Source of the DNA: Amoebophrya sp. A120
Lineage: Eukaryota; Protista; Dinoflagellata
Direction of reading: 5' to 3'
DNA length: 64,000 bases
Assembly (NCBI GenBank): GCA_905178155.1
Contig: CAJINV010000008.1
Coordinates: forward strand, 2,232,001 to 2,296,000
The notes beneath the pieces are model-generated. The model did not search any database. It was given only the letters and a program-made list of their open reading frames with translations, and had not been told where the DNA came from. The position numbers and the translations under genes are program-made. Below, one piece after another: positions 1,346 through 61,400 of the stretch (within the stretch, counting starts at the first letter, position 1; every line of letters begins with the position of its first letter).

Positions 1346-3607
1346 TTGGATAGATCAAGAATATTTCAGCATGCTTTGATTGCCTTTTTTTGTGCGATAT
1401 CAGAGGGGACACGACCATTGGAACCCACAGATCGTGACGTTGGAGTTGACCCACCAGCATCCCCGCACCCGCTGACCCTGCGCGGCGACTCGGCTCCCGG
1501 TCGCGGTGGGGCTAAAGAGCAGAAGCTTGGAGGCGTCCGCAGAGCCGGCGCGTTCGTCGGCAAGCAACTGAGCGCCGCACGGTATCAAAAGGAAAAATCC
1601 CCCCTCCCCATATCGAAAAGGTATGTTTCCGAAAATTTCTGTTGCTGATTTGAGGTCACAAATCATGTCTGTCTTGCAAGAAGACAAGGGCAGAAGCTTC
1701 CGCCCCAATATGGAAGCGATTTGCCATGCTGTTGGGCCTAAAAGTGACCCGCTTGCCGTGCTGAACAACTAGACCCATACGCCCCTACCCAGCCTGGGGA
1801 TCTGGCCGCAGTACCTCTCTGCAATACAAACCCGATTTCGGTACACAAATCCAGCATCAGAAATTCCGTTTTGATATGGGGAGGGGGGATTTTTCCTTTC
1901 GATACACGGGAAGCAGTCGCTTCTCGCTTTAGCGGGGGAGCTAGGAACAGGAGAAAATCCGACCTACCGGGGGAAGCCTGCACTTTGTATCACGTGGCCC
2001 GCGACGGCAAGCCGTTTTTCGATGCGAGTGAAGATTCCGGCGCAGACGGTGCGAAGTGTAGAAGCGGCATACACGATCATGATCGTGGTCGGGTCGCACC
2101 AAGTACCGCGTTGACGCCCCGGCTATCAAATGTAAAAATGTCTGGGTCTGGAAGATTGGAACTTGTGATGCTAACTTTGGAATGTAAAAAAATCTGTATT
2201 GCATGACCAGCAAGAGGAGCCACATTTGTGCTACGCGAGGAGGGCATTTGTCATGCGCAAATGGCATCAGGAAGCTTTCCAAAACTCTGTGATGCTGGGT
2301 CATGCATTACAAGCATCATGGGTCATGCCAGACAAGCATGACAAGCCTTCCATTCTTCCAGACCCAGACATTTTTACAGTTGATACCGGCGCCGCAGCAT
2401 CGAAGAAATCTTAAACGATTCGGATCGCGTATGGATGTGTCAGAGTTGAAATCGTCAAAGTTGAAATGATTTGTCATGCAAAAAATGCGACACAATATTG
2501 CAGAGGACGCACGGGAGGCAGATCATAGTCCTGGTAAGGGTCAAAAGTTGGACTGCTGACTAGCATGACAGAAGGCACCTCTTTTGCCCTGAACCGCATG
2601 ACAGACTCGCTTCCAGGACCGGGAAAATTTGTCATGCACCGACTACAAACTGTAGGCCTAATTGGTATCCGTTTTATGCATGACAAACTATCTCAACTTT
2701 GACGATTTCAAACCTGACACATCCATATCGCGTTCTATCGAAGTCCCCGCGCTATGCCTGGAGTATGTTTAACTCAAGTCAGGGCCATGGTCAGCGACAG
2801 CTGGTGGTACAGGCTAGCTGTGCGAAAATGCAAGAACTCTTGTTGTCTTGCCGATACTTATCAGTCCGTGTGGCTTGTTGTCGTGCACTTGTTTTTCCAA
2901 CATGGAAAAAATAGCAGTGCCTGGTCGGGCACCTTCTGCCTGACAAAGATACAAGCAGAAGCCGAAACTGGGTAGGAAGTCGAAACATAAAAAACCCACT
3001 ACAGAAGTAATAAGTGACGCGACACAACATTTTACGTAGCATGTTTTACTTCCTGTACTTTACTTACCTTAGGTATTCGATTTTTGTTTTGGAAGCCTGA
3101 CGCGGGTAAGATTTTTCCAGTCGAAACGCTCGGAAGCGCAACAAAATACTGCGAGACGAGCGGCAGTCGGTTTCCGTCCCCCAATAGCAGCGGAGCTGGG
3201 AAATATCCAAGAAGAAAACTCCTTTACTGTGGTCCTGCATTTGTAAAGGGTGCAGCACAGTTGGCTTGCATGGCTCATATATAAAGTGAGCGCTGAAATG
3301 AAATAAAACTCTTTTACGCTTCGGTTTTTTTTTTGGGATGTCCGCCTTTCGCTGCAGCTGCTTTGTGTTTATGCAAGAGAAGCCGCTTGGCAAACGTCCT
3401 CCAATCATGCATCATGTTTGTCACAGTGAAGCCTTTTTTTTGTGTGAAACGAAATCGTGCGGGAAGAACAAACTTCTTGCGGCCCCAGGAACGGGCCCGC
3501 ACACCGACTCCCGGCGTTCGCCGTCACCGAGGGGGTCACCAAGGGGATCACTCACTGTGCATGCAGCGACCTCGCCGAGAACTTCGATTGCATCCCTGAG
3601 AGGTTGA
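1346..3607 (+). CDS. Hypothetical protein, 6 exons (4 introners + 1 GT-AG intron); true start uncertain
   Basis: Removing 1583-1909, 2124-2390, 2430-2732, 2763-3072 and 3204-3454 gives one frame: SAAR|EAVA...TPR|RRSIEEILNDSDR|VLSKSPRYAW|SIRFLFWKP...GAGK|SCGKNK...SLRG*. Confidence 0.7.
1583..1904. mobile_element. Introner family B
   Basis: TIR TATCAAAAGGAAAAATCCCCCCTCCCCATATC; TSD CACGG. Confidence 0.9.
2124..2385. mobile_element. Introner family A
   Basis: TIR TATCAAATGTAAAAATGTCTGGGTCTGGAAG; TSD CCGGC. Confidence 0.9.
2430..2727. mobile_element. Introner family C
   Basis: TIR TATGGATGTGTCAG..TTGAAATCGTCAAAGTTG; TSD TCGCG. Confidence 0.9.
2763..3072 (+). other. Canonical GT-AG intron
   Basis: GTATGT...CCTTAG; removal joins frames. 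Confidence 0.65.
3204..3449. mobile_element. Introner family D, degenerate
   Basis: Decayed TIR; TSD GGAAA/CGAAA; frame restored. Confidence 0.65.
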
Positions 3608-4567: not shown

Positions 4568-7440
4568 ATGCCGCCCCGTGGGTCCGCTGGTGGTTCCTCC
4601 GTGGCGTCCGTCATAGATGGAGTCAATACTTACATACAAGCCGGACCGGGAGGCCTCAGCGTGCTGTGCTTCTTCTACCCAGTGCAAATACTGACAGGGT
4701 GACTCAGAAGTCTGGATTAGAATGATCGCAGCAAAATTTTATCACGGAGGATTAGCACGAGCGGCTAGTATTCTTTTTATTACGGCAGGAAATCGTCAAA
4801 AGAGAGGTTATGATTTTATTTAGTTTTCGGGGTGGTTTTGTATGTAAAGGTACTCTCCAAGTAGTCTGCTGGAGGAAAATAATTGCCAACATGCTACAAA
4901 TCTAATAAATGCGTGGTGTTTCCTCGTGTGTGTGTGTGGAAACGCGGATACAACTTTGCGCAAAGCATGCTAAGTATGGAGTTTGAAGGGAATCAATTGA
5001 TGGTGATTGGATGTTTGTGCCAGCTAGACGGCAGCATTCGTTTGAACCCAGGGTGCTGCATACTGGTTAATATTTGCACATTGCATATCCGCATAGGAAT
5101 CGCCACGATGGTCGTGGGTGTAATGGGAGTGCTCGAGGAAGTTATGGACCTGTCTCTGTTCATATGCGACGCAACTATACAACCGCCTCTGCCCCTTCGA
5201 ATCTTCATGACAGCTGGTGAGCAGCAAAAAGATACCCGTGCGATACTCATGTCACATTTTAGACGTGTAGTGAAGATCCAGGACACGAGTGTCTATGCAA
5301 GCTAGGTGCAGGCGCATGAAAAGCGAGAAGCATGTAGTATCGACTTCATTTTCCCTCTTTATGCAGCGATGGAGGGCCCTCACCCTCCTCATGTGCGCGA
5401 GCTCTTCATACCATACATGTGTGGGTTTTCGGGCGTAGTTTCACTGCATAGGTCAGCGACCCGTTCGACTTCGTACAATCTCTTCAGCTGTCAAATGTCA
5501 ATCTTCTGTACCTCCATCCAAACTACAGACTGATTTATTTCGAAAAACCAGATGAAGAAGTCAGGCCTTTTGTTAAGGTCGTATGATGATCTCTGTTAGC
5601 TGGAGGACGGAAGGTCCTCGAGGGACCTCGTTTTGAATTTTTTAAGAAAAAATCTAACTCCCAATTGATGGCGCTTTCTGCAAAAACAAAAACACTTATC
5701 CATATAGACTCTGCACCTCTATCTGTGTTTCTTCGGGTTTACTGCGGTGCTGCTAGAGTCGGATGCGGAACATATTGAACTGAAAAGTTGTTGTGCCGCT
5801 GCGCCGCCATCACGGGGAAATGTTTGCATTACAGCGCTCTGTGGGGAAGGTCTTTTATGCACCACCGACACAATTACTTGTCATTGTCAACCACGAATTT
5901 AGCCGAAATAATGATGAATCTGTGTAGTTGCACACTAGAGACGATGTTGCACGAGTAAAGAGGCGCGCCACGCCGAGATGCGCCGTTCCTCCATGGAAGC
6001 ATAAGGCTTCTTTGGGCGTGGGCCCGAAAGGGAGTCTTTGCACGACACGAACGTGTGTGCCGTTTTGAAGCGGGGCACTTTTCATTCTGATAAAGCGAAT
6101 CAAGGACGTCCCCGTCGTCGGTCCCCTTTCCGTGCATTTACACGCCTATCAAAAATTCGTCAACGAGTACGCGCACTTCCTCACGCACATACGCGGACGG
6201 GGCGGTTATCCTGTGCAGAAACATCCCCGCCCCGGAGTCAGGTCGGGAATTCTGCAACACAAATGAAGAAGTTTTTCTCTGTATTGTAGTGCAGGTTACC
6301 TCGAGCTCCAAGAACAGCCGCATCACAAAGCCGCCAGCTAATCCTGTTTACAGCAGTACAAAGCGCCAGAAGACGAATGGAAATGCCTCCGAGGCGCATG
6401 CGCATTACAAGCGTTCCTGTAATTGCAGATCTACATGACGATTTTGGTTGACAGCTATTTGCGGCCATGGGCACAGGGGGAGGCAAAGAGTGTCGCGCTT
6501 CTGTTTAGCATGACGATGGTGCGGGGTTGGGGAAGTTTTTGCTCAGGATCGCGGTTTCTACATATTCATCGGCACCTTTTGTTACGTCGAGCGGAAAACA
6601 AGGCTGCTCTTGCACTAGTAGTGCAGTTGTCCTCGGAAGGCGACCTAAATCAATGCGTAAACTAGGTACTTGCAGCAGGAGTTCAGTCTTATGCCACTGG
6701 AGGGCTTCTGCAATGAGACAGGCTCCTGCGAGGACGTGGGGTAGATTGTATGATCCATGGTAGCACGTTACAGAATGACCACCTGTGCACCACAATTTCC
6801 CATCCTGATGCAGATTGAAATTGGCATTCCGTTCGTTATCCGAGACTACAGCTACTGCTTACATTGGCACCACACGTTTTCATTTCATATCTGCATCACT
6901 GAGTGCATACTCTGCCCGCTCTTCCTGGTAAAAGTAGTCTTTTTTGCCTACAAAAGCTTCTCTTCGTGCCGAATGAAATGTGATGATGAAAGAGATGCTG
7001 GCTCGCAGATTTCTCGTGCTTGCGCTTTACCATTCAGCTGCATATTCGCCATGCAAGCGCTGCTGCGTCGAGATCAGGATCGATTATGCTGGCAAAACTT
7101 TACACAAAAAGATTCGCCCCAGTGCCAGTGTATCATATCAGATATTCCGATATTGGCTTCTGCACGCGCAAAGAAATCCAGACTACAAGAAAATATTGAA
7201 ACCTGCAGGTCGGCGCTGCAAACGGAGCGGTTGGAGTATTGCTCATGTTGCTGTCGTTTGGATACAAACCAGATCTCAGCTCACAGAACGTACTGTCGAA
7301 AGTCTGAACAGAAGTTCCATAGTTGGGTGGTCGGCTGGTCATCTATACTTACATGTGCAGTTGTAAATAAAGCTTTCATCAGGTGCTGGATGATTAAAAT
7401 ATCAAGCCCTGTTCTACCTCCGGGGGCACGACAGAATTAG
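4568..7440 (+). CDS. COPI-associated / TVP15-18-like multi-pass membrane protein, multi-exon; 3' end and one internal junction unresolved
   Basis: Joined exons read YIQAGPGGLSVLCFF|IGIATMVVGVMG...HLYLCFFGFTAVLLESDAE|QIKDVP...YAHFLTHIRGRGG|FYIFIGTFC|ITECILCPLFLV. The FL...GRG.FYIF.G signature matches my recollection of the COPI-associated family. Not visible in the ORF track. Confidence 0.6.
4676..5087. mobile_element. Degenerate introner
   Basis: GTGCAAATA...TATTTGCAC inverted ends; TSD TCTTC/TCCGC; frame restored. Confidence 0.55.
5773..6092. mobile_element. Introner family F, degenerate
   Basis: TATTGAACTGAAAAGT...ACTTTTCATTCTGATA; TSD decayed; element+5 restores frame. Confidence 0.6.
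6207..6550. mobile_element. Introner family E
   Basis: Internal similarity to 12806-13084; TSD GCGGT. Confidence 0.8.
6583..6889. mobile_element. Degenerate introner
   Basis: TAC...CATA ends; TSD TTTGT/TCTGC; frame restored. Confidence 0.5.
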
Positions 7441-7587: not shown

Positions 7588-7629
7588 TGTGCCCGACCGC
7601 TAGCTGTTGGTTGTGAGAGTGAGACTTCT
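7588..7629. repeat. 42-bp exact direct repeat, second copy at 8661-8702
   Basis: TGTGCCCGACCGCTAGCTGTTGGTTGTGAGAGTGAGACTTCT seen twice. Confidence 0.9.
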
Positions 7630-8105: not shown

Positions 8106-8371
8106 TATGAAATGCAACCATGTCTGGGTCTGCAAAAATTCTGAGACTTGTCATGCACGTTTTGCATGAGCCATGATGTCTGTGATGCATGCCCTAGCAT
8201 CACAGATTTTTTTGGGGCCTCCTGATGCCTATACCGCATGACAAATGCCCTCTCCGCGTAGCAGAAAACGCATTCCCTTTGCTGCTCACGCAAGGTAGAT
8301 TTTTTTGGAATCCAAATGCAGCATCACAGGTTGCATTCTTCCAGACCCAGACAACATATTTGCATTTGATA
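8106..8371. mobile_element. Introner family A
   Basis: TGTCTGGGTCTG/CAGACCCAGACA TIR; TSD CCGCA. Confidence 0.9.
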
Positions 8372-8405: not shown

Positions 8406-8660
8406 TATCAAATGTAAAAGTGTCTGGGTCTGGAAGATTGCCAGGTTTGTCATGCACATTTTGCATGACTCCTGATGTCTGTGATGCATGCCCTAGCATC
8501 ACAGATTTTGTGAGGGCTTCCTGATGCCTGTACCGCATGACAAGTGCTCTTTCCGTGACTTGGACTCTCTTTGCTGCTCATGCAATACAGATTTTTTTAG
8601 AATCCAAAATCGGCATGACAAGTTGGATTCTTCCAGACCCAGACATTTTTACAGTTGATA
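8406..8660. mobile_element. Introner family A lacking a TSD
   Basis: Intact TIRs; flanks GGTCA / TGTGC do not match. Confidence 0.85.
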
Positions 8661-9207
8661 TGTGCCCGACCGCTAGCTGTTGGTTGTGAGAGTGAGACTT
8701 CTTGAGTACAAGAATACCGTCAGGCCCTACGGCTGAAGATCTTCCTCCATTTCTTCTCTGTCGGTACTACATGTGTGCTGTATGTTTTCAGATCCTAGCC
8801 CTAAAAGCTAGATCTGTGTCTTGATTTCTATTCTCTGACTATCTCTTCAATATCCGATAATTACTATCGGCATTATCCTCATCAACGAAAATTATTTTCC
8901 TTGTCACAGGACCCAGGTGATCGTGTTTTGGCACGCCCAACAAACGTGGACGACCAGGATTTCTTGAGTAGCAAAAGAAGTACTGGCCTTCGTTTTTTTT
9001 TTCTTTTTCTTCATCGGCTCGGACGCCTGAGCACTGCACTTTATCGCCCTTAGGCACTAGCATTTGAACTTGACAAAAATAAATATCATCCTCTTTGGTT
9101 GAGTGCAGAGTTGAATATTAGCACAGTATTGAATTCTTTCGAGAAGTGACAAGTAAGACCGACATCAATAGGGCCATCGACAGTGTCGTCTTTCGGAATC
9201 TTTAACA

Positions 9208-12200
9208 ATGGCGCCCCAAAGTAGAATCAGCGGAAGGATAGAGGATCCTTTGCTCTCGTTTGACAAAACGGAGTTACCAGAGGAAAAAACGAGCGGAGCG
9301 ACTTCTAACAAGACGAGTGCGGCAAGGACTCCGGATAACTTAGTGTCGGCGGACGTTTCGTCTGCGACCGCTGGTCCTACCCCCGCTCGGTCTTTGCTTT
9401 TCATGAAGCTGTTCTTCACCGCACCACCGTTGTTTCTCCTTGCTCTCGGCTTTTATCGCGGCGTCGCGCGGCATAATCCGTACGTCCAGTATGCTGTGCT
9501 GGTCGCCAGTGAAAGTGTTTTTGGCGGTAAAAAAAATCATGGTAGCTCGTCCTTAGCAGCCGACGTCGTTGTAACGCCACCAGGACGAGACGACGGGGAG
9601 ACCACCGTGTCCGTTGCTGTGGCGAGGAAGCCCCACGCTCAGCAAGTGTTAGACGCAGAAACAGTGCGTTCTCTTGTCGGAAAAACGAAGGAAAGAAGTA
9701 CTACTACAGCAAACGCTGGCGCTAGATCACCAGCCCCCGCAGGGCACCAGCAGCAAGAAGACGCAGCTAACCTCCAGGAGTTGTACGTGTGTCAGCTCTA
9801 TTCACCGCAAATTACATGCCTGGGTCTGGAAATAGTTTGTGATGTCCGCGCTCCCCGTGAGAAACTAATAAGACGACTTAATTTATTAGTTTGCATGAAA
9901 ATTTTTTGAAACCCAGGTCTCAGCACCGCACAACTCGCTTGAGAAAAAATCACGTCTTTGCATGACCAACTAAATAATTTACCCGGCGTTAACTCATCCG
10001 CTGCTCGTGCTTCATTCGAGACGCCCCAACAAGAGACGTGTGCTCCACATTCTCCCAAAGCAAGTCATATTTGCGGTGGATAAAGAGTTGGTCAACCACA
10101 CACTCGGCGTGCTGTCTGCGAGCAACACCGGGCAAATAAATCACGACTTCTTCAAAGGTTCCGACCTCAGGGAGCTGTACAACCTGCGGCTTGATAGTCA
10201 TGTCGACACGGGCAAAAAAATTCTCCTACAGGGTGACCACGTCACCAAGGTGTTTTCCACAAGGAGCAGCAAGTTCGATCCTGACGACAAGACGTCTGTT
10301 ATTACCCATGGCGAGACGTCAATCGAGGAAACTTCTGCAAGTGCAACACCGAGCGCGGCGGCTGCTGCGCAAAAACTGGCGTCGCGAAAAAATAACGCAA
10401 CAACCACCTACACGTCGCCGACGCCGTTTGTTCCTTTCGGGGACTGGATCTTTGATCTGCAGAAACTTCGCGAGGAAATTCAAGCAAACAAGGACCGTTT
10501 CGTATCAAAGTGAAAAAAGCCCCCACCCCATATCGGAAACGGAAGATACGCGAATTTGTGATGCTGTATTTGAGTACACAAATGGACTTGCATTGCTAGA
10601 GGGCCAAGAGACTAAGCTGCGGCCTAAATTGCAAGTAATCTGTCATGCTGTTTCCCACTTCCAGTTGCCTCCTGTCATCCTGGAGCTGCAAGGCTTTCCC
10701 ACGCTAGACAGCACTACAGTCCGCATCTTTTGCCTTCTAGCATCACAAAGCTGATTTGTGACCCCAAATCTGCATCACAGATTTCCGTCTTGATATGGGG
10801 AGGGGGGATTTTTCCTCTCAATATTTCGTCGTTGTCCACGATTTTTTGTCGCCGGAGTTTCTCGCCCGAGTATTCTATTTAAAAACGTCCCCACCCCATA
10901 GTTGTAATGCAAATCTGCATGCTGAAAATGTTTCTCATGCGGAGCCCCATGAGAAGCATTTTCCAATCGTGTTTTGCAATTTGTCGTGCTCCAATCAGCA
11001 TGGTATGCTAGATCTGTAATGCTGCTGAGCTACCTCAAACAGCACTACACTACGAGTCCAAATTTGTCATGCAAAACAGACAAGACTTGTGGACTTCTCT
11101 AGCCGATTGCCCATCTTGACTCTGGTGTGGGTACGTTTTTACTCAGGATACCGAGTGACTGCCGCGTATCCCGAGGTTGTAGTCAACGAAGTGTTGGACG
11201 GGGAAAAAATGAAAAATGACAAAAGCAGCCCCAAGCTCAAAAGCGAATCTGTGTCTGGTGCACAAAACATAGGAACGGAAATGAACAACACTACAACAGA
11301 AGAACTAGTGCCATCAGAAGCTGCTGAGTCCATATCCAGGAAAAAAACTGTGTCAGTGTAACTTTTTTCGGACGAACAGCATCACAAATGAATATCGGAC
11401 GAACAGCATCACAAATGAATTATGGTAAAAATATCGGCGCGGTTCTTTTAGAATCACAAATGAATAAATATACCTGGCATGATTGAGGACAGCAAAATAA
11501 AGTTGCCATACGAAGCAAGTACTGGGTGGAGAGTTGTACGTGATAACACGACACATCAGATACGAAACTTGCCTGCGACAACGCATGTCAAGCATGACAA
11601 CAAGGTTCACAACTGTTTTGCGGCGTCTGTACTTGTTCTGCAAAGTTACGCACAGAAGTTTTTGTCTTGCATAGTCTAACTGGTTCATGTACAGCAACCC
11701 GTTGGAGGTCAAGTACTTGAACGATCACTTCGAGCGGTACCAAGCCGACCTGAAACGGTATTTTCACCTTTTATCCCACCCGGTCGTTGCCCATGTGTTC
11801 ACGAAGCTCTTCGACTTTTCGGAAGCACTTCACTACGATCCAGTGATCCACGGTGGGGGATTGCACGCGATGCCACGGGTATCGCCAGAAAGAACTGTTT
11901 CACTGTAAACTTGTAATGCAGAAAATGTATTTCACAAGTGTTTGTCTTGCTAAACATGCAAGACAGTGGAGTTTTAGCTGTGTTTTCCCTTAGGAACCTT
12001 GCATGGCAAATTTTCTTTGTCATGTAGAGCAAACTTGTGATGCAAAACCTGCAAAATCCTTGCAGTGAGACACTTTTTTCGTACGATAACGGGGTGGCCG
12101 GCTGAACATGCACCTGGATTACGAAAAGCACCCCTTTCTGAAAAACAAGCAGCGGCGATTGAATGTGATTTTCTTCCTCAATGACGAGTGGCGGGTATCC

Positions 12201-48578: not shown

Positions 48579-48589
48579 TGAGGTCACCG

Positions 48590-49320: not shown

Positions 49321-52300
49321 ATGAAAAGCAATAACAAGCCCGCCAAAGATATTTGTGCCACTACGACCGGGAATAAAAATCAAAGCCAAAGCACCGTCGC
49401 CAAAGCAAAGGCAAATCCCAAGGCAGCCAGCGCGACTTCAGCGAAAATGAATAGTACTCCACCATTGAAGACCAAGGATCAACAAGGTTCTGGGAACACT
49501 GCTGCGAGTGCGACCACCTATTCCGCGACGTCGCTGTCCTCGTCCTCCGTGCCGTCCCCAGGCTCCACCACGGCGACTTCTGGAAGCAAACAAGATGTAG
49601 ACACGACCCCATTAGTGTGGAAGGACAAGATCGGCTGGAGCGGCCGAAACAACCAGTCGCACCGGAACGGCATGTATCGACTGCAGCTAATCCGTCTGGT
49701 ACAACTGGAAATTCGCACAGGATTTGCGTCCTGCTTAGTAGTTCCTTGCCCTCAGAAGTCCTTGCCTTTTTTTCTATGCGACCGCATAGATACTCACTTG
49801 CACGGCAGATGCAGAATTAGTACGTAGCATGATCACAAGCTTTTGGATTCTTCTCGGCAAAACGAATTTACTATCCGAAAGTTTTGCGTGGTACAACTAC
49901 AACCCACATGAAACTTGGTTGAAATCCTGTCTCATGCTATAGAGGACCTTTGATGCCGCATGCAAATCTAGTCGCGACCACACAAGTCCAGACCCAGATC
50001 GATATTTGCAACGCATAGCGACTGTGCGGTTGCGCGGGAGGTTTTGCAGGACCTGGCGCCCTACGCGTTACTGGCTTTGAACGAGATGGCGGCGCGCGGC
50101 TTGCGGCACGCGCTGAAGCTGAAACCCGCCGAGTTGCGGCCTGGCGAAAAGGAAGACCCGCGGCCCTGCCCCTGGGAGTACCTGCGGCAAACACTGCGGC
50201 TGCCGCAGAAGTACTTGACGGAGTTGCGAACGCTGTTGAACGTGGAATTGATCGAGCAGCTGCTTTCGTGTCGCGTGCGCCGCGGCGGCCTGCGGGTGTT
50301 CTTCACCGAGGAAGAAATCCGCCGTACGTGGCGCGAGGCGCGGGGGAGCAAGCAGCGGCTGCAGGACTTGCTGTGCGACCGGGACCTGGCACCCAAGATC
50401 AAGGAGTACATGGTCATGTTTCTCAATGGCAACGGCCGGGACCCCGAGCAGCTGCACAACCAGCAGGCGCACGAGCACCTGAAAAAGAATCTGTTTTCCC
50501 TGAACCTCGTGGAGGGCACGCAGGCGAACTACCGTAAAGCGATGATGAACAATCCGAACTTGACGTACCAGTCCACCCCCGGTGGCGGCGCGATTATTTC
50601 CGGGGACTACAGTGGGTGTCTGGATCCGGGTAGTAGAAATAGCAGCACGACCACCACAAGAACTCGGGGAGTGCGAGACGATATCGGAAGCAGTATCCTG
50701 GTGCCGAGCGCGGTGCCGAGACTGGTGGAGCAACGGCTGAAAGAGTGCGACGCGGAACTGGCAGCGGCGAGCAACGACCCTTCCTGTGGTACAGCCACGA
50801 CCCCGCCGGGCGGCCGCGGAGGTGCTGGCACAGCATCTAGAAGAACCACCTACCGGGAAGATGATGAGAAGAACAAGAACACATCATGCGAAGACCACGA
50901 CCGTGACGAGGCAGTAGATCCCTCGACAGCAGGTGGTGGATCACTCGCCGGGACAACTTCTATAACTCGTAGTTCATCCGCGACCACGCACGTTCCGAAC
51001 CTCGGCCCGCAGCAGATTACCGATATGGTGGAGGTCACGCGCAAAGTAGGCCTCAGCCGAGCGTACCAGTCCTGCAAGTCCCGGGGCGCGGACTTCCTGT
51101 TGGACGCGTATATTCAGCAGGTATTCAACTTTCGGAACGTACTTCTTAAGCGGTCCAAGGTACCTTTGATTAACCGTCCCGCACGTTATCTCGACGAGGA
51201 TTACTGGGAACGCGACTCCACTATGCACTGAAAATATAGAAGTTGTTGTGTGATCTGGTGGCTCGAGGAAGGAGTTGGTCGTTCCAACAGCTGGTGGCCC
51301 ATCTATGCAAATCTATCCCGGTGCACAGGGCTAAGCAAGATCGATAACAAGCTCTTCATTTTGTGTCAACTGCAGAAGTAGAAGGGTCGAGGACGTGAAC
51401 TTGTGGTCATACGGGGTAACTAGGCAGGCTTTTGAAAAGCCACACCCTCGTCCCGCCAAAGGGGTCGCATGGCCCATGCCGTGGCTTTCGTTTTTACAAA
51501 AGACGACCCCTTTCTCTTCGTATTTTGAAGGAAATATTTTGATCTCCACCAGTACGGAGGATGACCTCGATTTGGCTATAATAAGTATGCAAAAGCTGCG
51601 TTTTCTAAATATTGTCACGCATAATCTATTGCATTGCCTCTGCTCCAAACGACCCAGATCGACAACGCGATTTTTTATTTTTCGGGTGATATGCAAGTGT
51701 AGGTGCTGCGAGACGGAAGATGTGAAGAACAAAAGATTTCCCACCGACATGCCGGAGGGCTTCACTGAGGGCATGCGAATTTCGCTGCTTGAGTTGCCCC
51801 GGCAGGGCTTCCTGGACCTACTCCGGGTGTTTTTGAAACACACGGAAGAGCCGAGCAGCTTGGTGTCGCAGGTCTTGTGCTACGGGGGAGCCGTCGCGGA
51901 GTACTGTGCTTTGAACCCGAACGCCGAGGGAAAGGCCGCGCGGGCGATCGTGGAGTTTTTTGTCCGGCGGTGCGAAAAGTCCTATCCGCACTACCAAGAT
52001 CTGCTCAAGTGTCGGCGGGAGGTGGGTGTGGAGGTTTTCCAACGAGCGAGGGTCGAGCTGGAAAAGGACTACACCTTGCGGGAAGAAGCGAAATTCATCT
52101 CCTCGCTGTTTTGCAACAAGTACAGACTTTTCACGTAGATTGATATTAAGCATCTATAGGGAGCAGTACTTTTTGTTTTTTCGATCAAAAACGGTGTTGT
52201 TGAAAAAGTTTTGTAGAAATATATTTTGTACGCCAGCACCTGATGTTCAACGGGGCGAGAAGCGCCAGTTGTTGAGTTATTTCTGAAGACAAGTGCAGCG

Positions 52301-55130
52301 CGCCAGCAGGAGGAGGACATTGCGTTGAACACGAAAGGAAATAAACGTTCGATAAACATATGTAAAAATCGAAACCAGGTTGACCGACTACGTGATCTTT
52401 CATCCTCGCGACACCGGGGAAAACCTGGCCGGCGTCTTCCGCAAAGACCCGAACAGATGGCAGCCGAAGCGGCGGCTGAGCAGTGTGCCCGGGGTCTATG
52501 TGCCCTTGGAGAATTGGGGGCTGTTCGACCTAGAGCCGGAGGTCTCACAGCTGTCCTTGACCATGCGGGGCGTCGACACGCAGACGTGGTACCCGCCCAC
52601 GTACGGCGACGGCCCGCCGAAACCGGAAATTCAGTTCGTCGATATTTTGATGAGCCGGAAAATTCAGGAGTTTGCGACGTACAGCAAGCGCTACAGCGAG
52701 ACTTTTCTGAAACGAGACCTCACGCTGCTGATCACCCTGCTCGACACGGCCGGGGGGAAGGTACCTCTACTTCCCGGTGGTGGAGCGGCAAACATTACGA
52801 CTACCGGGGCGAAGAAGATGAACAACCCGAAGACCTCGGTTGCCGCGTCCTTATCCACGACAGGAACTGCCTCCTCGTCTTCATCTGCCGGTGCTGCTGA
52901 CCCTCCTGGGGCCGCGAAGGTCGTCGTGGACCACAATACTATTAAAGAGGCGTACTCAACAACAGCTTCGTGTCCGATATGGCATTCTCAAACGTTACAT
53001 TCTCAACTGTTACATGAATTTGTAATGCAAGACTAGCACAGGTGAGAGGGAGAACCTTGCGCGTCTTGCATTACAGGTTTGGTGCGGATTACAGTGCTAT
53101 TTAGCCCTCCGGGAATTTGTCATGCGAAGCAGCTTGATCGTCTGGCGGGTCATGGTCATTTTGCATGACAAATCATGTAACAGTTGAGAATGTAACGTTT
53201 GAGAGCCCCATATCCGAATTTGACGCACAGCCAGCGCTTTGTCAACCGCGGCCTCGTGGCCCGCACCGAGTATCGTAAGGAAAAATCCCCCCTCCCCATA
53301 TCGAAAGCGTATCCGTCTGAAAATTTGCGATGTGCATTTGCGACCTCAAATCCTGTCTGTGTTGCAGGAAGGCAAGTCCAGAAAGCGTTCCGCATTTTGC
53401 AGGCGGTTTGTCATGCTGTTTGGCTTAGAGCATACACGTTTGTCATGCTAGGCGCCTACGTCAAAACCTCTCGACTGAGGCTTGACATATGCCTGCACTC
53501 CTCTACTGCAAGACAAATCTGATTTGTGTACGCAAATCCAGCATCACAAACTTCGTTTTGATATGGGGTGGGGAGATTTTTCCTTTTGATACCGAGAGCC
53601 CCGGCTTCATGCGCATAACGCGGACCGTAAGGGTCCCGAGCACCATGGACATGCAGGAGTTTCAGGAGAAAATTTTGCAGCCCGCGATGGGGTGGCAGAA
53701 GTCGGAAAGCAACTACGTTTTCTACGACGGCTCGGACGGCGGTGCGATCGGAATCGAGCAGAACAACGAACTATCAAATGCAAAAGTGTCTGGGTCTGGG
53801 AGATTCCGAGATTCGTCATGCTGTTTTTTCAAGCTCCCCCACGTCTGGAATGCAGGGCGCAGCATCACAGGTTCTGCAGCTCGTTGGTGATGCGTATTCT
53901 GCATGAGAAATGCCCGCTCAGAATGGCCAGAAGTGGGCACCTTTTGCACGTTCTGCATCACAGATCACTGTAGGATCCGAAACACGCATCACAAGTTCGG
54001 ATCCTTCCAGGCCCAGACATATTTGCATTTGATACGAACACCACATGGCCGTGCTCGGGTTCCGCTTCATTCTATCAAAAGGAAAAATCCCCCTGCCTCA
54101 TATCAAAGCGAAATTTCTGATGCGGGATTTGGATACACACATCACATTTGTGTTGCAGTAGAGGACTGCACCCAGATCCTAAGCCTAGGCAAAGGCCTTT
54201 TGGTGTAGGCGCCTAGCATGGTAGACGGCTACCATGCAGGCCTCACAGCATTACAAATCGCCTGCGTAATGTGGCGGACAGCCTGAGCGTGCCACCTTGC
54301 AAGAGAAACCCGATTTGTGGTGACAAATCTGCATCACAAATTTTCAGAAGGATGCGCTTTCAATATGGCAAGGGGGGATTTTTCCATGCAATACATTCCA
54401 CCCAAGGAGTGCCTGGTCGGCCAGGTATTCCGCACCATCGAGGATAACGCCACCTACGTCTACGACCTGTCGAACGAGCGCTGGCGGCACCACATTTCCG
54501 TCTTGGAAATCCATGCAGTGGAAGATTCCACCGGGTTCCCCGACCTGCTCGCCGGCACGATGCGGTGCCCCCCGGAGCGGCTCAGCAGTGACAAAACCTT
54601 ATCCTGTGCAAATGCCTCGTACTCGTATAAATGCATTACAAATTTCCTCAGCATGAGAAATAAAATTTGTAATGCTGATCGACCTCAAGAACAAGATTTG
54701 TAATGCATGATTGCAATACGAGTACGATACTTTTGCACAGGATAAACCTCGAAAGACGAGCCGGGCGTGCGGAACGCCTACAACCGGTTCTTGAAAGATA
54801 TGCATTGCAAATATGTCTGGGTCTGGAAGGATGCGAACTTGTAATGCTGGCGCTGCATTCGAACCTGTGAATTCTGTGCTGCATGACCAACAAAAGTGGC
54901 AGCCTCTCATGCCATACAAAAACGCAGTTTCTCATGCAGAGTTCGTATGAGAAGGCGCTCTACGAGCTTGTCATGCTTTCCTGCATACGAAAGTGTCTTT
55001 ATCATGCACATTTTTGCATTACAAATTTCCAGACCCAGACATTTTTGCATTTCATAAAAGATCTAGAAGCGCAATTCGCCAAGGGCTGTTGGGGCTCGTT
55101 TGACAACGATTTTGCCGTGTCCTCGTATCA
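49321..55130 (+). CDS. Large multi-exon protein containing a pRiA4b ORF-3-like domain; may continue into the downstream CDS
   Basis: Spliced RITRTVRVPSTMDMQEFQEKILQPAMGW...YVF...YVYDLSNERWRHHISV...PDLLAGTMRCPPE matches the recalled pRiA4b ORF-3 pattern (RR..VP...Q.AMGW; Y.YD...W.H.I; G...CPPE). Junctions near 52140-52380 and 55130-55430 unresolved. Confidence 0.7.
49675..50017. mobile_element. Introner family A-related, degenerate
   Basis: Right end CCAGACCCAGATCGATATTTGCAACGCATA; TSD decayed; element+5 restores frame. Confidence 0.65.
51222..51544. mobile_element. Degenerate introner
   Basis: TSD TCCAC; frame restored. Confidence 0.6.
52978..53212. mobile_element. Introner family G
   Basis: About 40-bp TIR; TSD TCCGA. 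Confidence 0.9.
53271..53591. mobile_element. Introner family B
   Basis: TSD CCGAG. Confidence 0.9.
53772..54034. mobile_element. Introner family A
   Basis: TSD CGAAC. Confidence 0.9.
54073..54393. mobile_element. Introner family B (reverse)
   Basis: TSD CATTC. Confidence 0.9.
54600..54744. mobile_element. Introner family H (145 bp)
   Basis: TATCCTGTGCAAA...TTTGCACAGGATA; TSD AACCT. Confidence 0.9.
54799..55056. mobile_element. Introner family A
   Basis: TSD AAAGA. Confidence 0.9.
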
Positions 55131-55429
55131 GAGCGAAAACGATGCAATTAACAGTTCTCCAGAAGTAGTTCACGTGGCAAATAATTTCCAAATGCTGTCT
55201 GCGCTGCCGAATAAATAGTAATAGCATGATATGAAAATGAAATTGAACCAATAGGACTACGAGTCTCGTCCGTAAGTCGGAGCGAGTGTACTACGCGCGC
55301 CAAGCACATTTTACAACATGACAAGCCATGGTCTTATTAGGCTGTTTTGCATACACAGATTTTTGGTATTCTGGGCCAAAAAGCTCTGCGGCTAGCGCTA
55401 CGACATCCCCGAGGCCGGTTGTAATATCA

Positions 55430-58400
55430 AATTTGCAACGCAAGTGGTTCCAACTTCTGGGGTACTACTAGAAGCGGGACTTTTCACTATGATGCCTTCT
55501 CGTTCCCGCCCAAGTTGACCCGGTGGCAGAAGCGGCGGCTGGACGAAATCGCGGCTATCACGCCGGTATGAAATGCAAAAATGTCTGGGTCTGGAAGAGT
55601 CGGGACTTGTCATGCACATTTTGCATGACCCGTGAGGTCTGTGATGCTGGTGCTAGCATCACAGATTTTTTGAGAGCTTCTTGATGCTAATTACGCATGA
55701 GAAATTCCCTCTTAGCGTGCCAAGAACTGACTCCTCTTGCTGCTCATGCAACACAGATATTTTTAGAATCCGCAGACAGCATTACAAGTTGCATTCTTCC
55801 AGACCACCCAGACACTTTTACATTTGATAGCCGGGGCAAGTGTTGAATCCGGGGTTGCTGGCGCTTGCCGCAGGCGGCGCCTCCTCTTCATCTACTTCCC
55901 TTGCGTCACCCACGATCAACCCCTTCCGGTTTGACTTGGAATTTCACAAGAATCACATCGACCAACTTTTCGGCCGAGACAAGGCGAAGCTGAAAAAGCA
56001 AGCAGCCCGAGCGCGGAAGAAGCAGGCGGCGAAAGCGAAGAAGATACTAAACGCAAAGAATTTATGGATGTGTCAGGATCGAAATCGACAAAGTCGAAAA
56101 ATTTGTGATGCATAAAATCGATACCAGTTGGAGCCTCAGTTTGTAAGTGGCGCATGACAAATTTCGGGAGCACTCAAATCCAGTCTGTCATGCTGTTTGG
56201 GCAAAGAAGACTGCTCCTGTCATGCTACTCTGGCAGCACATTGCATACCGCCAAACAGGCTTGCAATCGGTCTCATTTGCCTGCTCCCCAATACAGGCCT
56301 CCAGTGCCCTACATTTTATGCATCACAAATTTTTCGATTTTGCCGATTTCGATCCTGACACATCCATAGAATTTGATGCAAGAAAAAGCAGGAGATGGAG
56401 AAGATGAACAAGAAGTAGAGAGGAAAGTAGATGAGCACCAACCTCAAAGTCACGACGAGGATTGGCAACGCGAGAGCACGACCATTGGATTCGCCGAAAG
56501 CGAAACAATAGCTTCGATTGTCGCGAATGCCCGCAAGCCCGAACTTGGCAGCAGCTGCGAAAAGGAGGTCGAAAACAGCACAAGAAATAAAATCGCAGAA
56601 TTAAATAAACCAAAGCAAGTCGGGGTTCTGCAGGAGCCTTCTAAAGATGCAGATGGAATAAATAAAGCCGGGAACAAACGAAATGAAATCAGAAGGCCTG
56701 CAATCTTGCACACCGAGCGGGGAACCGAGATTGACGTGGATGCGCTGACGCCAATATCCCGCGGCAAGATCGAAAAAATCCTCGAGCAGCTAACTCCAGT
56801 GGGGTCGTCGTCGACGGAGGTGGTACAACAGCCCCCGCGGCGAAGCTGCAGTGCATCTGAGGTACTGATGCCGGAGCCTCCTCCTGTCGTGAAGCCAACA
56901 GACTTGCAGCTCCGGGAAGCGGATGAGCGAAAAATTTTGAACACAAAGGAAGACAACACAAAATCCACGACGGCCGCGGAGGACGATGAAGACCACCACC
57001 AGCATCCTTGTGTAGTAGCGAGCCTGATGCAGGAGGAACCCGAGAATGGAAAATCCGAAAACGCCTCAAGGGATTGTTCCGACGATGAGCTGCACGATGG
57101 GGGAACAGTGGCGCAGCAACATCTTGTTCAAGGCAAACGAGCCCGCGCTGCATCCTCGCCTGCGAAATCTAGTGACTTTCTCGTTGCAGACCGTGAAGTT
57201 GTGCCAGAAGTAGGAAGTCTATCGGATTCAGCTGCATCTTCCCCCCGAGGAGGCGCAGCTCAGGATGAACTCGCGCACCTTTCGTCGCTCTTCGATGAAT
57301 GTGAGCACGCAAGTACGATGGGGATGGACGGCGATGGTGCGCAACAAGCAGATCTTCGGACGATCTTCGAAGAAGAGCTTGTGGTCCGACGTTCTTGTCC
57401 TTCGGAAGTAGAACTACAAGTAGACCAGTGCAGCTCGCCTGGAACTACAACAACATCGTCCAACCCCCCGAAGGACGACGAGCACGACCACTTCTACACT
57501 AGCTACCTGGCCCTCGGGAAAGTGAGTCGGTACGACCGGGTTACGGGGCACACACAGGACGTAGAAGAAATTCACGGGTTGCAGGGGCTCTGGAAAACGC
57601 TCTCCTCTTTTCCCGAACGGCAGCTTCTCCAGGTGATTTCCTGGGACGAGTCCAGCGTGAATCTGCTGCGCGACGACCTGATACTCGAAGACGACGCGTG
57701 GGGCACTCGTGATTCTCGTATGCTTTCAGCAGATCATGCGAACAATCCTGTAGTTCTGGAGGAAGAACTTTCAACATCGCGGCTACAAGTGCTGGACGAC
57801 GGCGGGGAGGAACATGATGAAGAACGCGAGCACGACGAAAATGTAGACCATGTCCGCAAGAATCCTGGCAATGTCAAGATACAGCACCAGGCACCTCCTT
57901 TATTTCGGCACACAGCTTTTCGGACGTCTCTCGAGCGTGCCGGCGGAGAAGAAGCTGCCCCAGCAGCCAAATCGAGGGATGGCAAAAAGAACGCCGCGGC
58001 GACGAGCGCTTCTACAGGGGGAGCTGGTGGGGCGGCCCAGCCGCAGGGGGCCGGTCAGAACCGAAACAATGGTCCTCGGGCCCCGCCGTCGACAGGCTCG
58101 GCAACCGCGAGCCAGCCAGAAACAACGGGCTCGGATTCTAGCCAGCTGCAAACCGCAGCGGACAAGAACAGCCCGCCCCCGACGAACAACAGGAGCAACT
58201 TGAGTGACCCGGTGCTGAAGAGGAAGCCTCGGGGTTGGCTCGACGTGGCGTTGCAACAGGTGGACTACTTGTACGACCCCGTCGCTGGTCGCCCCGCTGG
58301 GTTGCCGTTCCTCGAGCACCAGAAAACCTCCCTGCAGCTCCTCCCGCGTTTGTTTGAGTTCCTTTTGAAGATCATGTTCTTCATTTCCGAGGAAATGCCA

Positions 58401-61400
58401 CTCACGCGCGACGTCTTCGAGTTTTGCGTTATCTTGTGGAAAAACGTAGAAGTACCTATCTTCCCTGTCAATGTCATACATGCAAAGGAGCTGCTGGTAG
58501 GTGCATCCCTAACCCTAGACTAGCGCTAGTGCACCCACTTTATTCCGTCAACGGTGATTTCACTTTCGAGGCCTGTGTGTTCGGGAAAATCCGTCAGTCT
58601 CGTTGTCTGAGCCGGATAACACTGCTGGGGACTTCTGTTAGGCACAAGAACTACACAGCACATCCATTGTGGTCATGCGTCGTCAGGCCTAAGAATAAGA
58701 TTCTGATTTCCAGACTTGTCTACTAGCCAAGAATCTGGCATTTTGAAATAGGGACTCTGGGTACGTTTTTACTCCTGACTTCCGTGCATGCGGCCGCGAC
58801 CGACGGGCAGGGGAGATCCATGGGCCCGGTGGGGAACGCAAGATGCGGCTACGCACGCGTCGCGGCACAAACGGACTTCAGCACGCGGATATTTGCAGAA
58901 AACCTTTCATTTTGCGGCTATTTTCAGACCAGGGAGCAGAAGAAAAACTTTCAGTCCCAGTTTATTCTGCTGTGTCGGCAGCTGAAGACCGATTTGAAAG
59001 TGTTCGATTTCGTGCAAGACCGCGCGCCGGAATGCTATCAAACGGTGCTCATCTTCTGGAAAAATCTCAAGAACAGGTGGAACAAAGTACCAAAATGAAA
59101 AGCCGAAGGAAATGATCGTGTAGTTGTCTATCTGTGCACAAATAATGGAACTCAAGCAGAGTAAGTAGTCTACTTGCTGCAGCTCCTCTTCTCAAAGCTT
59201 TATAAAATTCTAGATATGAGTTTATGCAGTGTGCTTTTTCGCCGTTTCAGTTTCACTTTCGCTTCATGGGCGAAGTATCTGCCATTCTAAATAGACCGCG
59301 AATACATCAGTCCTACAACAACACATAGAGGTCGTTTGCATTTCGCCTGACCAATTGTAACTGACATTTCAGTTCTTGAGATCAGTTCAGCCGAGCAGGT
59401 CTTATTTCCATAGCTGCGTGCGGAAGTTTCTGCTGAGGTTTCTCCCGGTGCTGCTGAAAATATGAACTGCAAAAGTATCGTACTCGTATAAATGCATTAC
59501 AAATTTCCATAGCATGAGAAATAAAATTTGTAATGCTGATTCACCTCAAGAAAAAGATTTGTAATGCATGACTGCAATACGAGTACGATACTTTTGCACA
59601 GGATAGGAAAAACCTTCCAGCAACGACGCCTTCACGTACCAGTTGTGCTCCCGATTGCGGTATCAAGTGTAAAAGTGTCTGGGTCTGGAAGATTGCCAGG
59701 TTTGTCATGCACATTTTGCGTGACTCCTGATGTCTGTGATGCATGCCCTAGCGTCACAGATTTTGTGGGGGCTTCCTGATGCCTATAACGCATGACAAAT
59801 CCTCTTCCCATGTGGCAAAACTTGCACTCTCTTTGCTGCTCACGCAATACAGATATTTCAGAATCCAAAACCAGCATGACAAGTTGGAGTCTTCCAGACC
59901 CAGACATTTTTACATTTGATATGCGGTATGAGCTGCTGGGCAACGGGAAAGACGCGCTAGAACGGGAGCTTATCGTGAAAGCAAGTCCCCTCGACGAGGT
60001 AGGGATCGGGCGGGATGTTCCGGACCGCGTCGCAGACCGGTTTGTTGTGCTGCTCGAACTGAATGAAATGGCAAAGGTCTATTGCTTGCAAACCGAAGCT
60101 GAATTATATTTGGCGAAGATAGACAATTACAATGCTTGTTCTACTCAGGAGGCGCAATCTGGAGACGAGAACAGCAGGACCGCGCCGTTGCAAGATGAAA
60201 TGAATAGCAGTGCCTGTGGCCCCCGCGGGGGATCTGGATCTCCTGGACCGCCAGCAGCGTCCGCGAAAAATATTACAATACGCAGTAGTACAACTACTGC
60301 TGCTTGCTGCGACACGGAGTGCACCAGCCTGGTCAACCCGGCGCACCCGGACGGGAAAAACACGGTGTGCGTATCCCGTCTGCTCGCCGAGTTTGCGAGG
60401 AGTGTGGTAGACAAGCAGTGCGAGGAGCGGACGGCGTTTTTCAAGTCGGAAGGAACAAGCAAGTATCGGAAGTACTTTCCCACTTTTCTGGGGGATGCCG
60501 TGCGGATCATGGACCCGTTGCCCGTGCTGGCCATGAAGTTTGCGCCGAAGGGCCTGATAGAAGCTGCGAGCCGAAATAAAAAAGTCGAGGATCATCGCGC
60601 GAACGCGAGAATTATAGCGCACCGTAAGAAAGGAGGATCTTCTGTTGATGTGGAAAGTTCGTGTGCTGGCGGCGAAGCTGGTTCTTGTTATTCTGAGGAC
60701 GATAGAAGCTCAGAAGATGGCTTAGTGGACGAAGATTCTGACGACGAACACGCGCGGCGCGAGTTGGATCGCAATATCAACTTGGACCGACAGCGCCGGT
60801 GGCTGAACGATCGGCTCTACTCGCAGAAATACAGCGTCCGAAATAAAAGCGACGGGAAGGACGGCGAGTCGGATAATTGCGTTACCACGGTGGGCGACTT
60901 GAAAAAGCTTGTTCTGCACACCGTCGGAGCTCCCGAGCGGCTGCAGGCCGGTGCAACCGCAGATCCCCCGGTCTTGAAGAAGAGTCGCAAGGAACATCGA
61001 CCGCTGGGGCCGGAGGAGTCTTTTCTGAAGGGCCTGGACGATTTTGTCGCGTCTTTTCGATACCAGTATCAGCAAAGCATGAAAAAGGCGAGTCAAGAAG
61101 GAGGCGCTACAACTTATCAGGCCGTGGCTCCTGGTGACGTTGTTCGTGAGCAGCAACTACATCAAAGCCATTATACTGGTGCACAACAGTCCACCACCTC
61201 TGACGCTTCAACGAGGAAGCAAGGGGCCTCATCAACTTCTGGTATTCCGCTCGCGTGCAATTTCCAAACGGGTGCGGATTTAAAGAACACGAGCTCTCGT
61301 CCTGATGGTTGTACCTCAATATCCCGCTCGGAACATCTTCAACAGGAAAGCTGCACACAAGGACCAGCAGACAAACCAAGAACGCGTCTAACTTCAGACA

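Follow-up and report, generated by a model that had tools for sequence, protein, structure and literature searches.

Short non-coding elements interrupt genes in a 64,000-nucleotide stretch of the Amoebophrya sp. A120 genome (contig CAJINV010000008.1, positions 2,232,001 to 2,296,000 of the forward strand; hereafter, the window), and they are members of the known A120-type introners of this dinoflagellate. Their families share an internal motif, TGT[CGA]ATGC, whose phased array probably represents a set of predicted subterminal DNA binding sites for a mobilising protein acting in trans, the removal of the elements from RNA probably proceeding via their TAT...ATA arms without need of the motif. 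The internal array is conserved while elements move and is lost afterwards, and the terminal arms are kept while the elements are spliced. The motif is likely the grip of the mobilising protein because old copies without it are nevertheless removed from assembled transcripts. PMC7789003 names two open questions about Amoebophrya introners, the manner of their movement and that of their splicing.

Elements were defined by a search for inverted termini and flanking duplications (TAT start, ATA end and a 5-bp target-site duplication, TSD), and the annotation comprises 28 intact elements in seven families and 30 old ones. With a length of 145-330 bp, they resemble MITEs (miniature inverted-repeat transposable elements), being short, non-coding, bounded by terminal inverted repeats (TIRs) and a TSD, and grouped in repeated families. 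All 56 ends of the intact elements begin with TAT, and A occupies positions 11-14 in 22-28 of the 28, families B and E being without this A-run; TIR positions 16-28 differ between families, and the claim of the sequence-only reading that the TIRs are unrelated does not hold in full. The TSD is perfect in 24 intact elements, carries one mismatch in three and is absent from one; apart from a slight GC richness, the target sequence shows no preference. A TAT-led inverted repeat, a short direct repeat and removal with non-canonical borders were all found, in line with the published A120 introners, the inverted repeats of which start with TAT, seven variable bases and an A-run, with direct repeats of 3-5 nt (5 bp in the legend of Fig. 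S19; PMC7789003), and which likewise combine non-canonical borders with many families of 150-330 bp (PMC7789003; PMC12130899). The motif plays no part in the division into intact and old: related contigs hold 4-163 alignable relatives of each of the 28 intact elements and none of any of the 30 old ones, and old elements between 8 and 28 kb show single-copy depth (~30) in the DNA-type run X1, family bins reaching 10^3-10^5.

The motif has 115 matches in the window, 58 on the forward and 57 on the reverse strand, and the fourth middle-base variant, TGTTATGC, only two. Intact elements (7.45 kb) hold 96 exact matches, compared with a mean of 1.9 and a maximum of 6 in 100 dinucleotide shuffles; old elements (9.66 kb) hold 16, compared with 1.8 (~9-fold); one match lies in 1.56 kb of GT-AG introns and two in 13.4 kb of intergenic DNA. 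This bears out the recurrence on both strands proposed by the sequence-only reading for families A, B, C, D, E, G and H (the letters are those of the present analysis, paired with the earlier ones by TIR, and the identity of the two letterings is not confirmed), as well as an enrichment in elements relative to exons and GT-AG introns that differs from a background level. Two family C copies (1583 and 24078) carry variant sites only. The motif was also said to be scarce in exons, and none occurs in 30.7 kb, but only ~2.8 would be expected at uniform base frequencies, so that the depletion is not meaningful. Similarly, the sites cited as persisting in decayed elements are present (TGT at 22779, 33155 and 37339), but 19 of the 30 old elements are without an exact copy and 10 without any site scoring at least 8 with a position weight matrix (PWM). 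The extended consensus of 96 sites is A/G-rich at -5 to -3, with Y at -1 (69 T, 27 C) and W at +8; it recalls the animal Sox-Oct composite and an apicomplexan AP2 site, a likeness that we presume to be coincidental.

The same association was found in related contigs, which were collected with a family-A TIR pattern (at least 131 loci in one assembly, with family A over-represented) and reduced, among the matches listed, to 122 non-redundant loci of 659,725 bp. Elements were chosen there by TIR and exact TSD, the motif not being used. Among the matches listed, at least 374 elements form 15 families, besides 12 singletons; all 15 families are motif-positive, with 1.0-4.0 exact matches per element and 1,136 in total in the 374 elements, and the window families are shared at up to 95% identity. 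In the window and loci together, 2,002 of 2,088 matches fall inside the quarter of bases masked by family profiles, a result that is partly circular since these profiles contain the motif; 86 matches lie in the 542 kb outside the masks.

Once each element and a further 5 nt are taken out, the sequence reads through in open frames of 753, 1020, 1876, 1145, 765 and 2449 codons, besides shorter ones, across 26 of the 28 intact and 27 of the 30 old elements. Eight direct joints in assembled transcript-like contigs skip exactly the element plus 5 nt, and three multi-intron gaps in such contigs (917, 573 and 112 letters) equal, by arithmetic, the lengths of the spliced models; the DNA-type run X1 keeps the old elements in place. 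Most of the region from 40.5 to 60.5 kb is without transcript cover, and the raw RNA run X9, with only 26 mapped reads, was uninformative. Two old elements with diverged TSDs (9799-10082 and 27555-27799) fit a single cut, in which the left copy keeps four bases and the right copy only one, and the intron therefore runs from 1 nt before TAT to 4 nt after ATA; three other junctions are compatible with this 1/4 cut and three are uninformative. None of the five old elements with a directly observed joint (9799, 16488, 20778, 27555 and 59036) has an exact motif, and three of them keep no internal PWM site. Among 11 RNA-supported old elements, seven are without an exact motif and 95.5% of TAT bases are kept. 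The splice signal likely resides in the terminal ~14 bp of the elements, the motif not being needed.

One branch of the sequence-only reading took the motif for a mark of the excision machinery. In its RNA-level sense, namely a splicing enhancer, branch-like signal or pairing element recruiting the intron-removal machinery, this proposal is largely refuted, and we regard it as very improbable. The motif is most likely not a splicing mark, because old copies lacking it are still excised and because it decays near the neutral rate, as detailed below, while TAT...ATA is kept. A splicing cis-element would be strand-specific and retained in spliced introns; instead, the motif shows no strand bias, either in the whole window or in old elements (8/8), it is missing from every old element with a joint, most RNA-supported ones and, even as a PWM site, a third of all old ones, and family D is excised though its sites all face one way. 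The 10.5-bp phasing described below would also be without reason in RNA. In favour of such a mark, one may cite the excess over shuffles that old elements retain, the predicted pairing of 43 of 96 young sites with another site, and the report that U1 snRNA (small nuclear RNA) is undetected in Amoebophrya (PMC7789003).

The elements of the window are listed here without strand assignment, + and - giving the strand of each motif.

1583-1904, intact, family C, variant (PWM) sites only; TSD CACGG, TIR 19/20; 222-aa restored frame
2124-2385, intact, family A; motifs 2164+, 2249+, 2288+, 2304-, 2336-; TIR/TSD; frame restored
2430-2727, intact, family B; motifs 2472+, 2563-, 2596-, 2630+, 2678- (33-bp pair); TIR/TSD; frame restored
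5163-5450, old candidate, no exact motif; TIR/TSD; gene model not restored
5773-6092, old candidate; motif 5826-; gene model not fully restored
6207-6550, old, D-like; motifs 6320-, 6402-
8106-8371, intact, family A; motifs 8149+, 8181+, 8197-, 8236-, 8321-; TIR/TSD
8406-8660, family A copy without flanking TSD; motifs 8448+, 8480+, 8496-, 8535-, 8613-
9799-10082, old, spliced, no exact motif; joint 9797 to 10087 in contig X5, a junction that fixes the 1/4 cut
10503-10823, intact, family C; motifs 10557+, 10641+, 10740-, 10772- (32-bp pair); TIR/TSD; frame restored; length arithmetic on transcript-like contigs
10871-11150, intact, family D; motifs 10903+, 11015+, 11065+ (one orientation); TIR/TSD; frame restored
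11333-11673, old; motifs 11379-, 11406-, 11592-; frame restored; single-copy contig in DNA-type run X1
11880-12088, intact, family G; motifs 11912+, 12036+; TIR/TSD; frame restored
12196-12509, old, lacking exact and PWM sites alike; splicing deduced from length arithmetic; frame restored
12806-13084, intact, family D; motifs 12884-, 12933-, 12966-, 13014-, 13045- (33- and 31-bp pairs); TIR/TSD; frame restored
13135-13386, intact, family A subfamily; motifs 13207+, 13240+, 13260+, 13299+, 13346-; TIR/TSD; frame restored
13451-13712, intact, family A (96% to 2124); motifs 13491+, 13576+, 13615+, 13663-; TIR/TSD; frame restored
16488-16824, old, spliced, lacking exact and PWM sites alike; joint 16483 to 16826 in contig X3
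17420-17725, intact, family B; motifs 17595-, 17676-; TIR/TSD; frame restored
17779-18044, intact, family A; motifs 17819+, 17904+, 17943+, 17995-; TIR/TSD; frame restored
18337-18572, intact, family E; motifs 18380+, 18425-, 18475+, 18522-; TIR/TSD; frame restored
18634-18954, intact, family C; motifs 18678+, 18809-; TIR/TSD; frame restored
19383-19693, old; motif 19564+; frame restored; length arithmetic on transcript-like contigs
20778-21147, old, A-like, spliced, no exact motif; contigs X3 and X5 join 20772 to 21148
22747-23058, old, D-like; motifs 22779+ (offset 32), 22820+; frame restored; length arithmetic
23122-23439, old; motif 23227-; TIR/TSD; frame restored
23501-23750, old, G-like, no exact motif; TIR/TSD; frame restored; length arithmetic
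24078-24403, intact, family C, variant (PWM) sites only; TIR/TSD; frame restored
24664-24864, old, no exact or PWM site; TIR/TSD; frame restored
25586-25920, old, no exact or PWM site; TIR/TSD; frame restored
26108-26440, old, E-like, no exact or PWM site; TIR/TSD; frame restored
27209-27462, old, A-like; motif 27250+ (offset 41); frame restored
27555-27799, old, spliced, no exact motif; joint 27553 to 27804 in X3 and X5, the second junction fixing the 1/4 cut
31024-31459, old, A-like, no exact motif; frame restored
33076-33302, old, G-like; motif 33155+; TIR/TSD; frame restored
34553-34815, intact, family A; motifs 34594+, 34694-, 34718+, 34734-, 34766-; TIR/TSD; frame restored
36307-36695, old, no exact motif; frame restored
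37211-37463, old; motif 37339+; frame restored
40834-41071, old; motif 40969+; frame restored
41119-41438, old; motifs 41162+ (offset 43), 41250-; frame restored
41556-41866, old, D-like, no exact motif; TIR/TSD; frame restored
42028-42236, intact, family G; motifs 42073-, 42197-; TIR/TSD; frame restored
49675-50017, old, A-like, no exact or PWM site; frame restored
51222-51691, old, no exact or PWM site; frame restored
52978-53212, intact, family E; motifs 53021+, 53068-, 53118+, 53163-; TIR/TSD; frame restored
53271-53591, intact, family C; motifs 53409+, 53441+ (32-bp pair), 53541-; TIR/TSD; frame restored
53772-54034, intact, family A; motifs 53862-, 53955-, 53986- (31-bp pair); TIR/TSD; frame restored
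54073-54393, intact, family C; motifs 54248-, 54331-; TIR/TSD; frame restored
54600-54744, intact, family H, spliced; motifs 54633-, 54668+, 54699+ (31-bp pair); X6 joint skips 150 nt
54799-55056, intact, family A subfamily, spliced; motifs 54840+, 54969+, 55016-; X6 joint skips 263 nt
55126-55494, old, no exact motif; frame restored
55567-55829, intact, family A; motifs 55608+, 55640+ (32-bp pair), 55656-, 55779-; TIR/TSD; frame restored
56063-56368, intact, family B; motifs 56104+, 56152-, 56186+, 56218+ (32-bp pair), 56320-; TIR/TSD; frame restored
58430-58780, old, no exact or PWM site; frame restored
59036-59412, old, spliced, no exact or PWM site; X6 joint 59032 to 59415
59461-59605, intact, family H, spliced; motifs 59494-, 59529+, 59560+; X6 joint 59457 to 59608
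59661-59921, intact, family A; motifs 59703+, 59735+ (32-bp pair), 59790-, 59874-; TIR/TSD; frame restored
62764-63184, old, no exact or PWM site; frame restored

With regard to selection, trees of 342 elements in seven families were used to follow 'strong' sites, defined by their presence in at least 80% of members. On internal branches, the motif core accumulates 0.66 changes per 100, compared with 4.24 for other interior bases and 4.07 for the degenerate middle base, and terminal branches give 3.0, 7.6 and 7.7 in the same order. Positions 16-28 of the TIR behave like the core (0.92 internal, 4.45 terminal), the terminal/internal ratio being 4.6 for the core, 4.8 for TIR 16-28 and 1.8 for other bases. 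A TSD clock (366 perfect, 71 with one mismatch) gives ~3.7% per site summed over both copies, these copies being located by interior profiles and limited to the 437 of 588 rows with a TSD of at least 4, as TIR indels shift extrapolated ends; TAT bases are mismatched at 1.2-1.9% in the same copies. By our estimate, divergence since insertion is about enough to account for the core changes on terminal branches, which would then proceed at ~0.7-1 times the neutral rate. In old elements, where TSD mismatch reaches 29%, 0.53 exact motifs are left per element and 63% have none, compared with 0.48 and 61% in a neutral simulation at 25% divergence. By contrast with the simulation, TAT is intact at 87% of old ends (43% simulated), and pairing over TIR 1-14 amounts to 9.9 (7.2 simulated); TIR 1-3 and 9-14 still pair at 73-97%, and TIR 17-28 has fallen from 82-96% to 23-47%. 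Core mismatch in family A rises only from 6.3% to 9.6% with TIR 16-28 decay, a biased figure since the detection profile contained the motif. The expectation that the motif would be conserved better than its neighbours thus fails in old copies and holds on the internal branches of family trees; neutral decay after insertion refutes a splicing role only, not a role in mobility.

These trees contradict the notion of a relic, in which the motif would have no function and merely survive from a common ancestor or from a tandem duplication inside an ancestral element, and which we consider scarcely credible: the core changes six-fold less than its neighbours on internal branches, the middle base being free. 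All families do have TAT ends and a 5-bp TSD in common, as a relic would predict, and, with motifs masked, 11 of the 105 pairs among the 15 contig families align weakly (z>4), but the median z is 0.6, and none of the window family pairs aligns (maximum z 2.8, compared with 16.4 within family A). The alignability by which simple common descent was to be recognised is therefore not seen among the window families. Some descent is visible between families, and it is insufficient to account for the motif.

The arrangement of the sites is also ordered. In one site map per window family, same-orientation gaps measure 18, 31 (four times), 32 (twice), 33 (three times), 39, 48, 49, 52 and 54 bp; a clustering such as that of nine of these 15 gaps in 31-33 bp was matched by 0 of 20,000 random placements, any 3-bp window being allowed. 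The spacers of 11 such head-to-tail pairs are only 26% identical, as random sequences would be, and the pairs are thus not tandem duplications, which further disfavours a relic. Among the 15 contig families, lengths of 31-33 bp account for 19 of the 41 gaps (null mean 1.68; 0 of 5,000), and a 30-33 bp pair is present in 13 families. The first inward-facing sites from the ends of these families cluster at 32-33 bp (7 ends), 40-44 bp (8) and 52-55 bp (3). The spacing and position of sites relative to the termini, which the sequence-only reading had singled out for analysis, therefore proved structured: pair spacing is a strong ordered signal, and the offsets of 32, ~42 and ~54 bp are suggestive of steps of about one helical turn (3-5 turns), this end phasing being only suggestive because there are just three clusters and the families may be related. 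Indel constraint is only slightly stronger in 31-33 bp intervals, where a fraction of 0.14 of members is off by >1 bp (interval length 32 bp), than elsewhere (0.20, interval length 43 bp). In elements of 631 and 697 bp, the sites lie within ~200 bp of the ends.

Opposite-facing sites also recur at distances of 44-49 and 34-35 bp, and RNA folds predict a mean pairing of 0.81, as would be expected if the sites formed hairpins folding a single-stranded DNA or RNA intermediate during mobilisation. We give this little credence, since the commonest layout is head-to-tail and unable to pair, families D and fam7 have sites in one orientation only, and variable 5-bp TSDs fit a staggered double-strand cut. 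Somewhat less improbable, though still unlikely, is binding by a host DNA-binding or DNA-bending protein (chromatin or transcription factor) exploited as an accessory of mobilisation or insertion. The same phasing and lineage conservation would be expected, no element-encoded protein was found, and one motif across families differing in TIR 16-28 would suit a common host factor serving several enzymes; however, the motif is nearly absent from host DNA, both intergenic and outside the element masks, and its phase is tied to the element tip.

The other branch of the sequence-only reading, transposase-binding sites, is supported, as a prediction, by the helical phasing, the strand symmetry, the internal-branch conservation and the end confinement in longer elements. 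The features of subterminal repeats were found together: the word is repeated, in both orientations, placed relative to the termini, selected in transposing lineages and released once inserted. Several points weigh against subterminal binding sites separate from the splice signal. The transcript-like contigs are only presumed to be RNA, and all of them derive from a single sample. The presence filter of at least 80% lowers the core change rate by construction, and locating old elements with a TIR profile inflates their TAT retention. Old elements still contain the motif at nine times the shuffle level, a poor match to a DNA-only role, and the predicted RNA folds pair many intact-element sites. 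The families are perhaps not independent, as the 11 weak pairs indicate, and the spacing may be partly inherited. Of the 30 family ends, 12 have an outward-facing site in first place, in most cases 34-36 or 42-48 bp in, and the layout varies by family, unlike a fixed end architecture. Finally, no transposase, integrase or reverse transcriptase family of Pfam was found in 197 locus and 8 window open reading frames (ORFs; ~0.7 Mb), and Farhat et al. reported no transposase in A120 and argued against general mobilisation by transposases (PMC7789003).

As a mechanism for mobilisation via the array, several protomers of one transposase, or of a DNA-binding helper, would bind the sites on one helical face of duplex DNA, bring the two ends together in a paired complex and cleave the TAT tips, leaving a stagger of 5 bp, the family-specific TIR 16-28, likewise released after insertion, representing a putative second protein contact. 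The shared motif points to one enzyme, or to several related enzymes alike in their DNA-binding domain, that would serve all families; the single enzyme of the sequence-only reading stays an inference. After insertion, selection would hold only the terminal arms, because the host splicing machinery reads them at the 1/4 offset.

No autonomous coding element was found in the window and loci, the sequence searched being well under 1% of a genome of ~115-125 Mb (PMC7789003). None of seven TSD-flanked spans >520 bp that were checked codes for a transposase; three were rejected as chance pairings of separate elements or non-elements, and one more is doubtful. A C-x2-C...H-x3-C peptide in locus L076, considered as a BED finger, matched no Pfam family and no Atlas cluster and was rejected as a fragment of an A120 protein. 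The 697-bp element with family-A ends and a TSD in this locus (765-1461) carries a fragment 90% identical to an A120 zinc-finger-like protein (P0002), which by sequence may represent a Pack-type gene capture. The 631-bp element (L031, 3862-4492) has family-A-like ends, an interior 70% identical to L005 13691-13934 and no ORF of 100 aa. Locus L043 (10001-10972) holds a family-A element split by an insertion of ~700 bp; given its poly-A end and its duplication of 15-19 bp, the insertion looks like a non-LTR (long terminal repeat) retroelement. An inverted repeat of at least 2.1 kb, 100% identical and symmetric in a 20.4-kb contig (L035, 3269-5407 and 14948-17086), shows no transposase match in its ORFs; it could have arisen in the assembly or else form a large TIR element. 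Five TIR/architecture patterns gave 0, 1, 0, 0 and 0 matches in viral contigs, and one pattern gave a single match in prokaryote genomes, both hits being dismissed as AT-rich chance without partner end or TSD.

Transib transposons create a 5-bp TSD, and their termini are unlike TAT, so that membership was rejected despite the fitting TSD. Membership of hAT was rejected on the 5-bp TSD, as opposed to an 8-bp target (PMC10368747), and that of Ginger on its TGTNR termini (PMC2836005). The Ginger2/Tdd group nevertheless offers parallels: while the usual Ginger TSD is 4 bp long, TDD-4/5 have a 5-bp TSD, and the present TIRs of 30-56 bp are near the Ginger range (PMC2836005). Gozashti et al. described an A120 family with Copia/Gypsy-related homology between its TIRs, and their table assigns fam38 a 5-bp TSD, TA/TA termini and LTR-integrase (Copia)-related homology, without Ginger termini and homology (PMC12130899). 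The 5-bp stagger and these features of fam38 make an integrase-like DDE transposase the likeliest enzyme type. A more far-reaching proposal, which we hold only tentatively and think rather less likely to be right than wrong, is an undescribed integrase-like transposon superfamily whose enzyme reads only the TAT tip and the phased array, thereby mobilising otherwise unrelated elements, even those with captured host fragments, while the host has evolved splicing of any TAT-N7-AAAA hairpin at the fixed 1/4 offset. If true, insertions would be nearly harmless, which would account for the ~30,000 introners of A120.

Among known systems, the BED domains of Hermes (hAT) bind subterminal repeats, for which exact phasing is crucial (PMC10368747), and Lemi1 binds subterminal motifs of the Emigrant MITE cooperatively (PMC1636448). 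The present elements resemble both in having short repeated words inside the ends, in both orientations, with end asymmetry and phasing to the TIR. They differ from Hermes (8-bp target, 4-bp word) by a 5-bp target and a word of 8-13 bp, and from both systems by fixed tandem pairs of 31-33 bp, their occurrence in at least 15 families with differing TIR 16-28 and their splicing as introns; here, the array is known from sequence alone. Coral CMITEs and the nonconventional introns of euglenids are partial analogues. The former, piggyBac-related elements, have a continuous internal region (PMC2872659), in contrast to scattered phased words between which the spacers are unrelated. The latter are likewise MITE-derived, and their excision relies on pairing of the termini, the two arms being offset, but their consensus is CAG/CTG at +4..6/-8..-6 (PMC11282704), whereas here TAT lies at +2 and ATA ends 4 nt before the 3' border. 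The sections and supplementary text of the A120 literature consulted (PMC7789003; PMC12130899) describe no shared internal motif, phasing or split between mobility and splicing, and the preprint of Roy et al. (2023, Curr Biol), in the part available, does not mention Amoebophrya, transposase or TIR. No published description of the motif, its spacing or this split was found in a search of text that left aside image figures S19-S25 of PMC7789003 and A120 table rows 41-58 of PMC12130899. The array is real and apparently represents an undescribed cis element of a known kind.

Other features of the window deserve mention. A 39-bp duplication (7589-7627 and 8661-8699) brackets a 1.07-kb block ending in the TSD-less family-A copy 8406-8660, which possibly reflects aberrant or one-ended transposition, or local duplication. 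A likely GT-AG intron at 25172-25554 contains a single motif, at 25378, and a right end resembling a TIR at about 25514; it is possibly an old introner converted to canonical borders. Between ORFs of 976 and 1045 aa, a frame break at 45130-45440, which may mark an intron or the border of a gene, shows a TAT-like left end, and no matching right end was found. Every restored gene lies on the + strand. The tandem paralogous genes at 15713-21198 and 22734-28517, in which introner positions differ, resemble polypeptide GalNAc-transferases (a ricin-type lectin domain matched; catalytic motifs were judged by eye). A second repeat of 733 bp (48571-49303; also L042 3121-3853, at 87%, and L043 5153-5435) contains no motif; it starts with GTATGT, is GTA-flanked and carries a subterminal inverted repeat of 11 bp, with a small GC hairpin close to the right end. 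Deleting these 733 nt fuses two frames, and the layout resembles that of Helentron-like elements. In length and 3-bp duplication, it is like A120 fam26 (730 bp; table of PMC12130899).

Taken as a whole, two codes are separated in the same 250 bp: a phased array selected only during movement, and a TAT-N7-AAAA pair kept during splicing, with a fixed offset. The array offers a bait for the missing transposase and a signature for finding autonomous elements, while the fixed cut offset provides a rule by which mis-annotated intron borders, thousands in number, could be corrected; the design of a minimal minigene for the non-canonical splicing machinery also follows. The result argues in favour of a single mobilising system common to 'families' that number in the hundreds to thousands.

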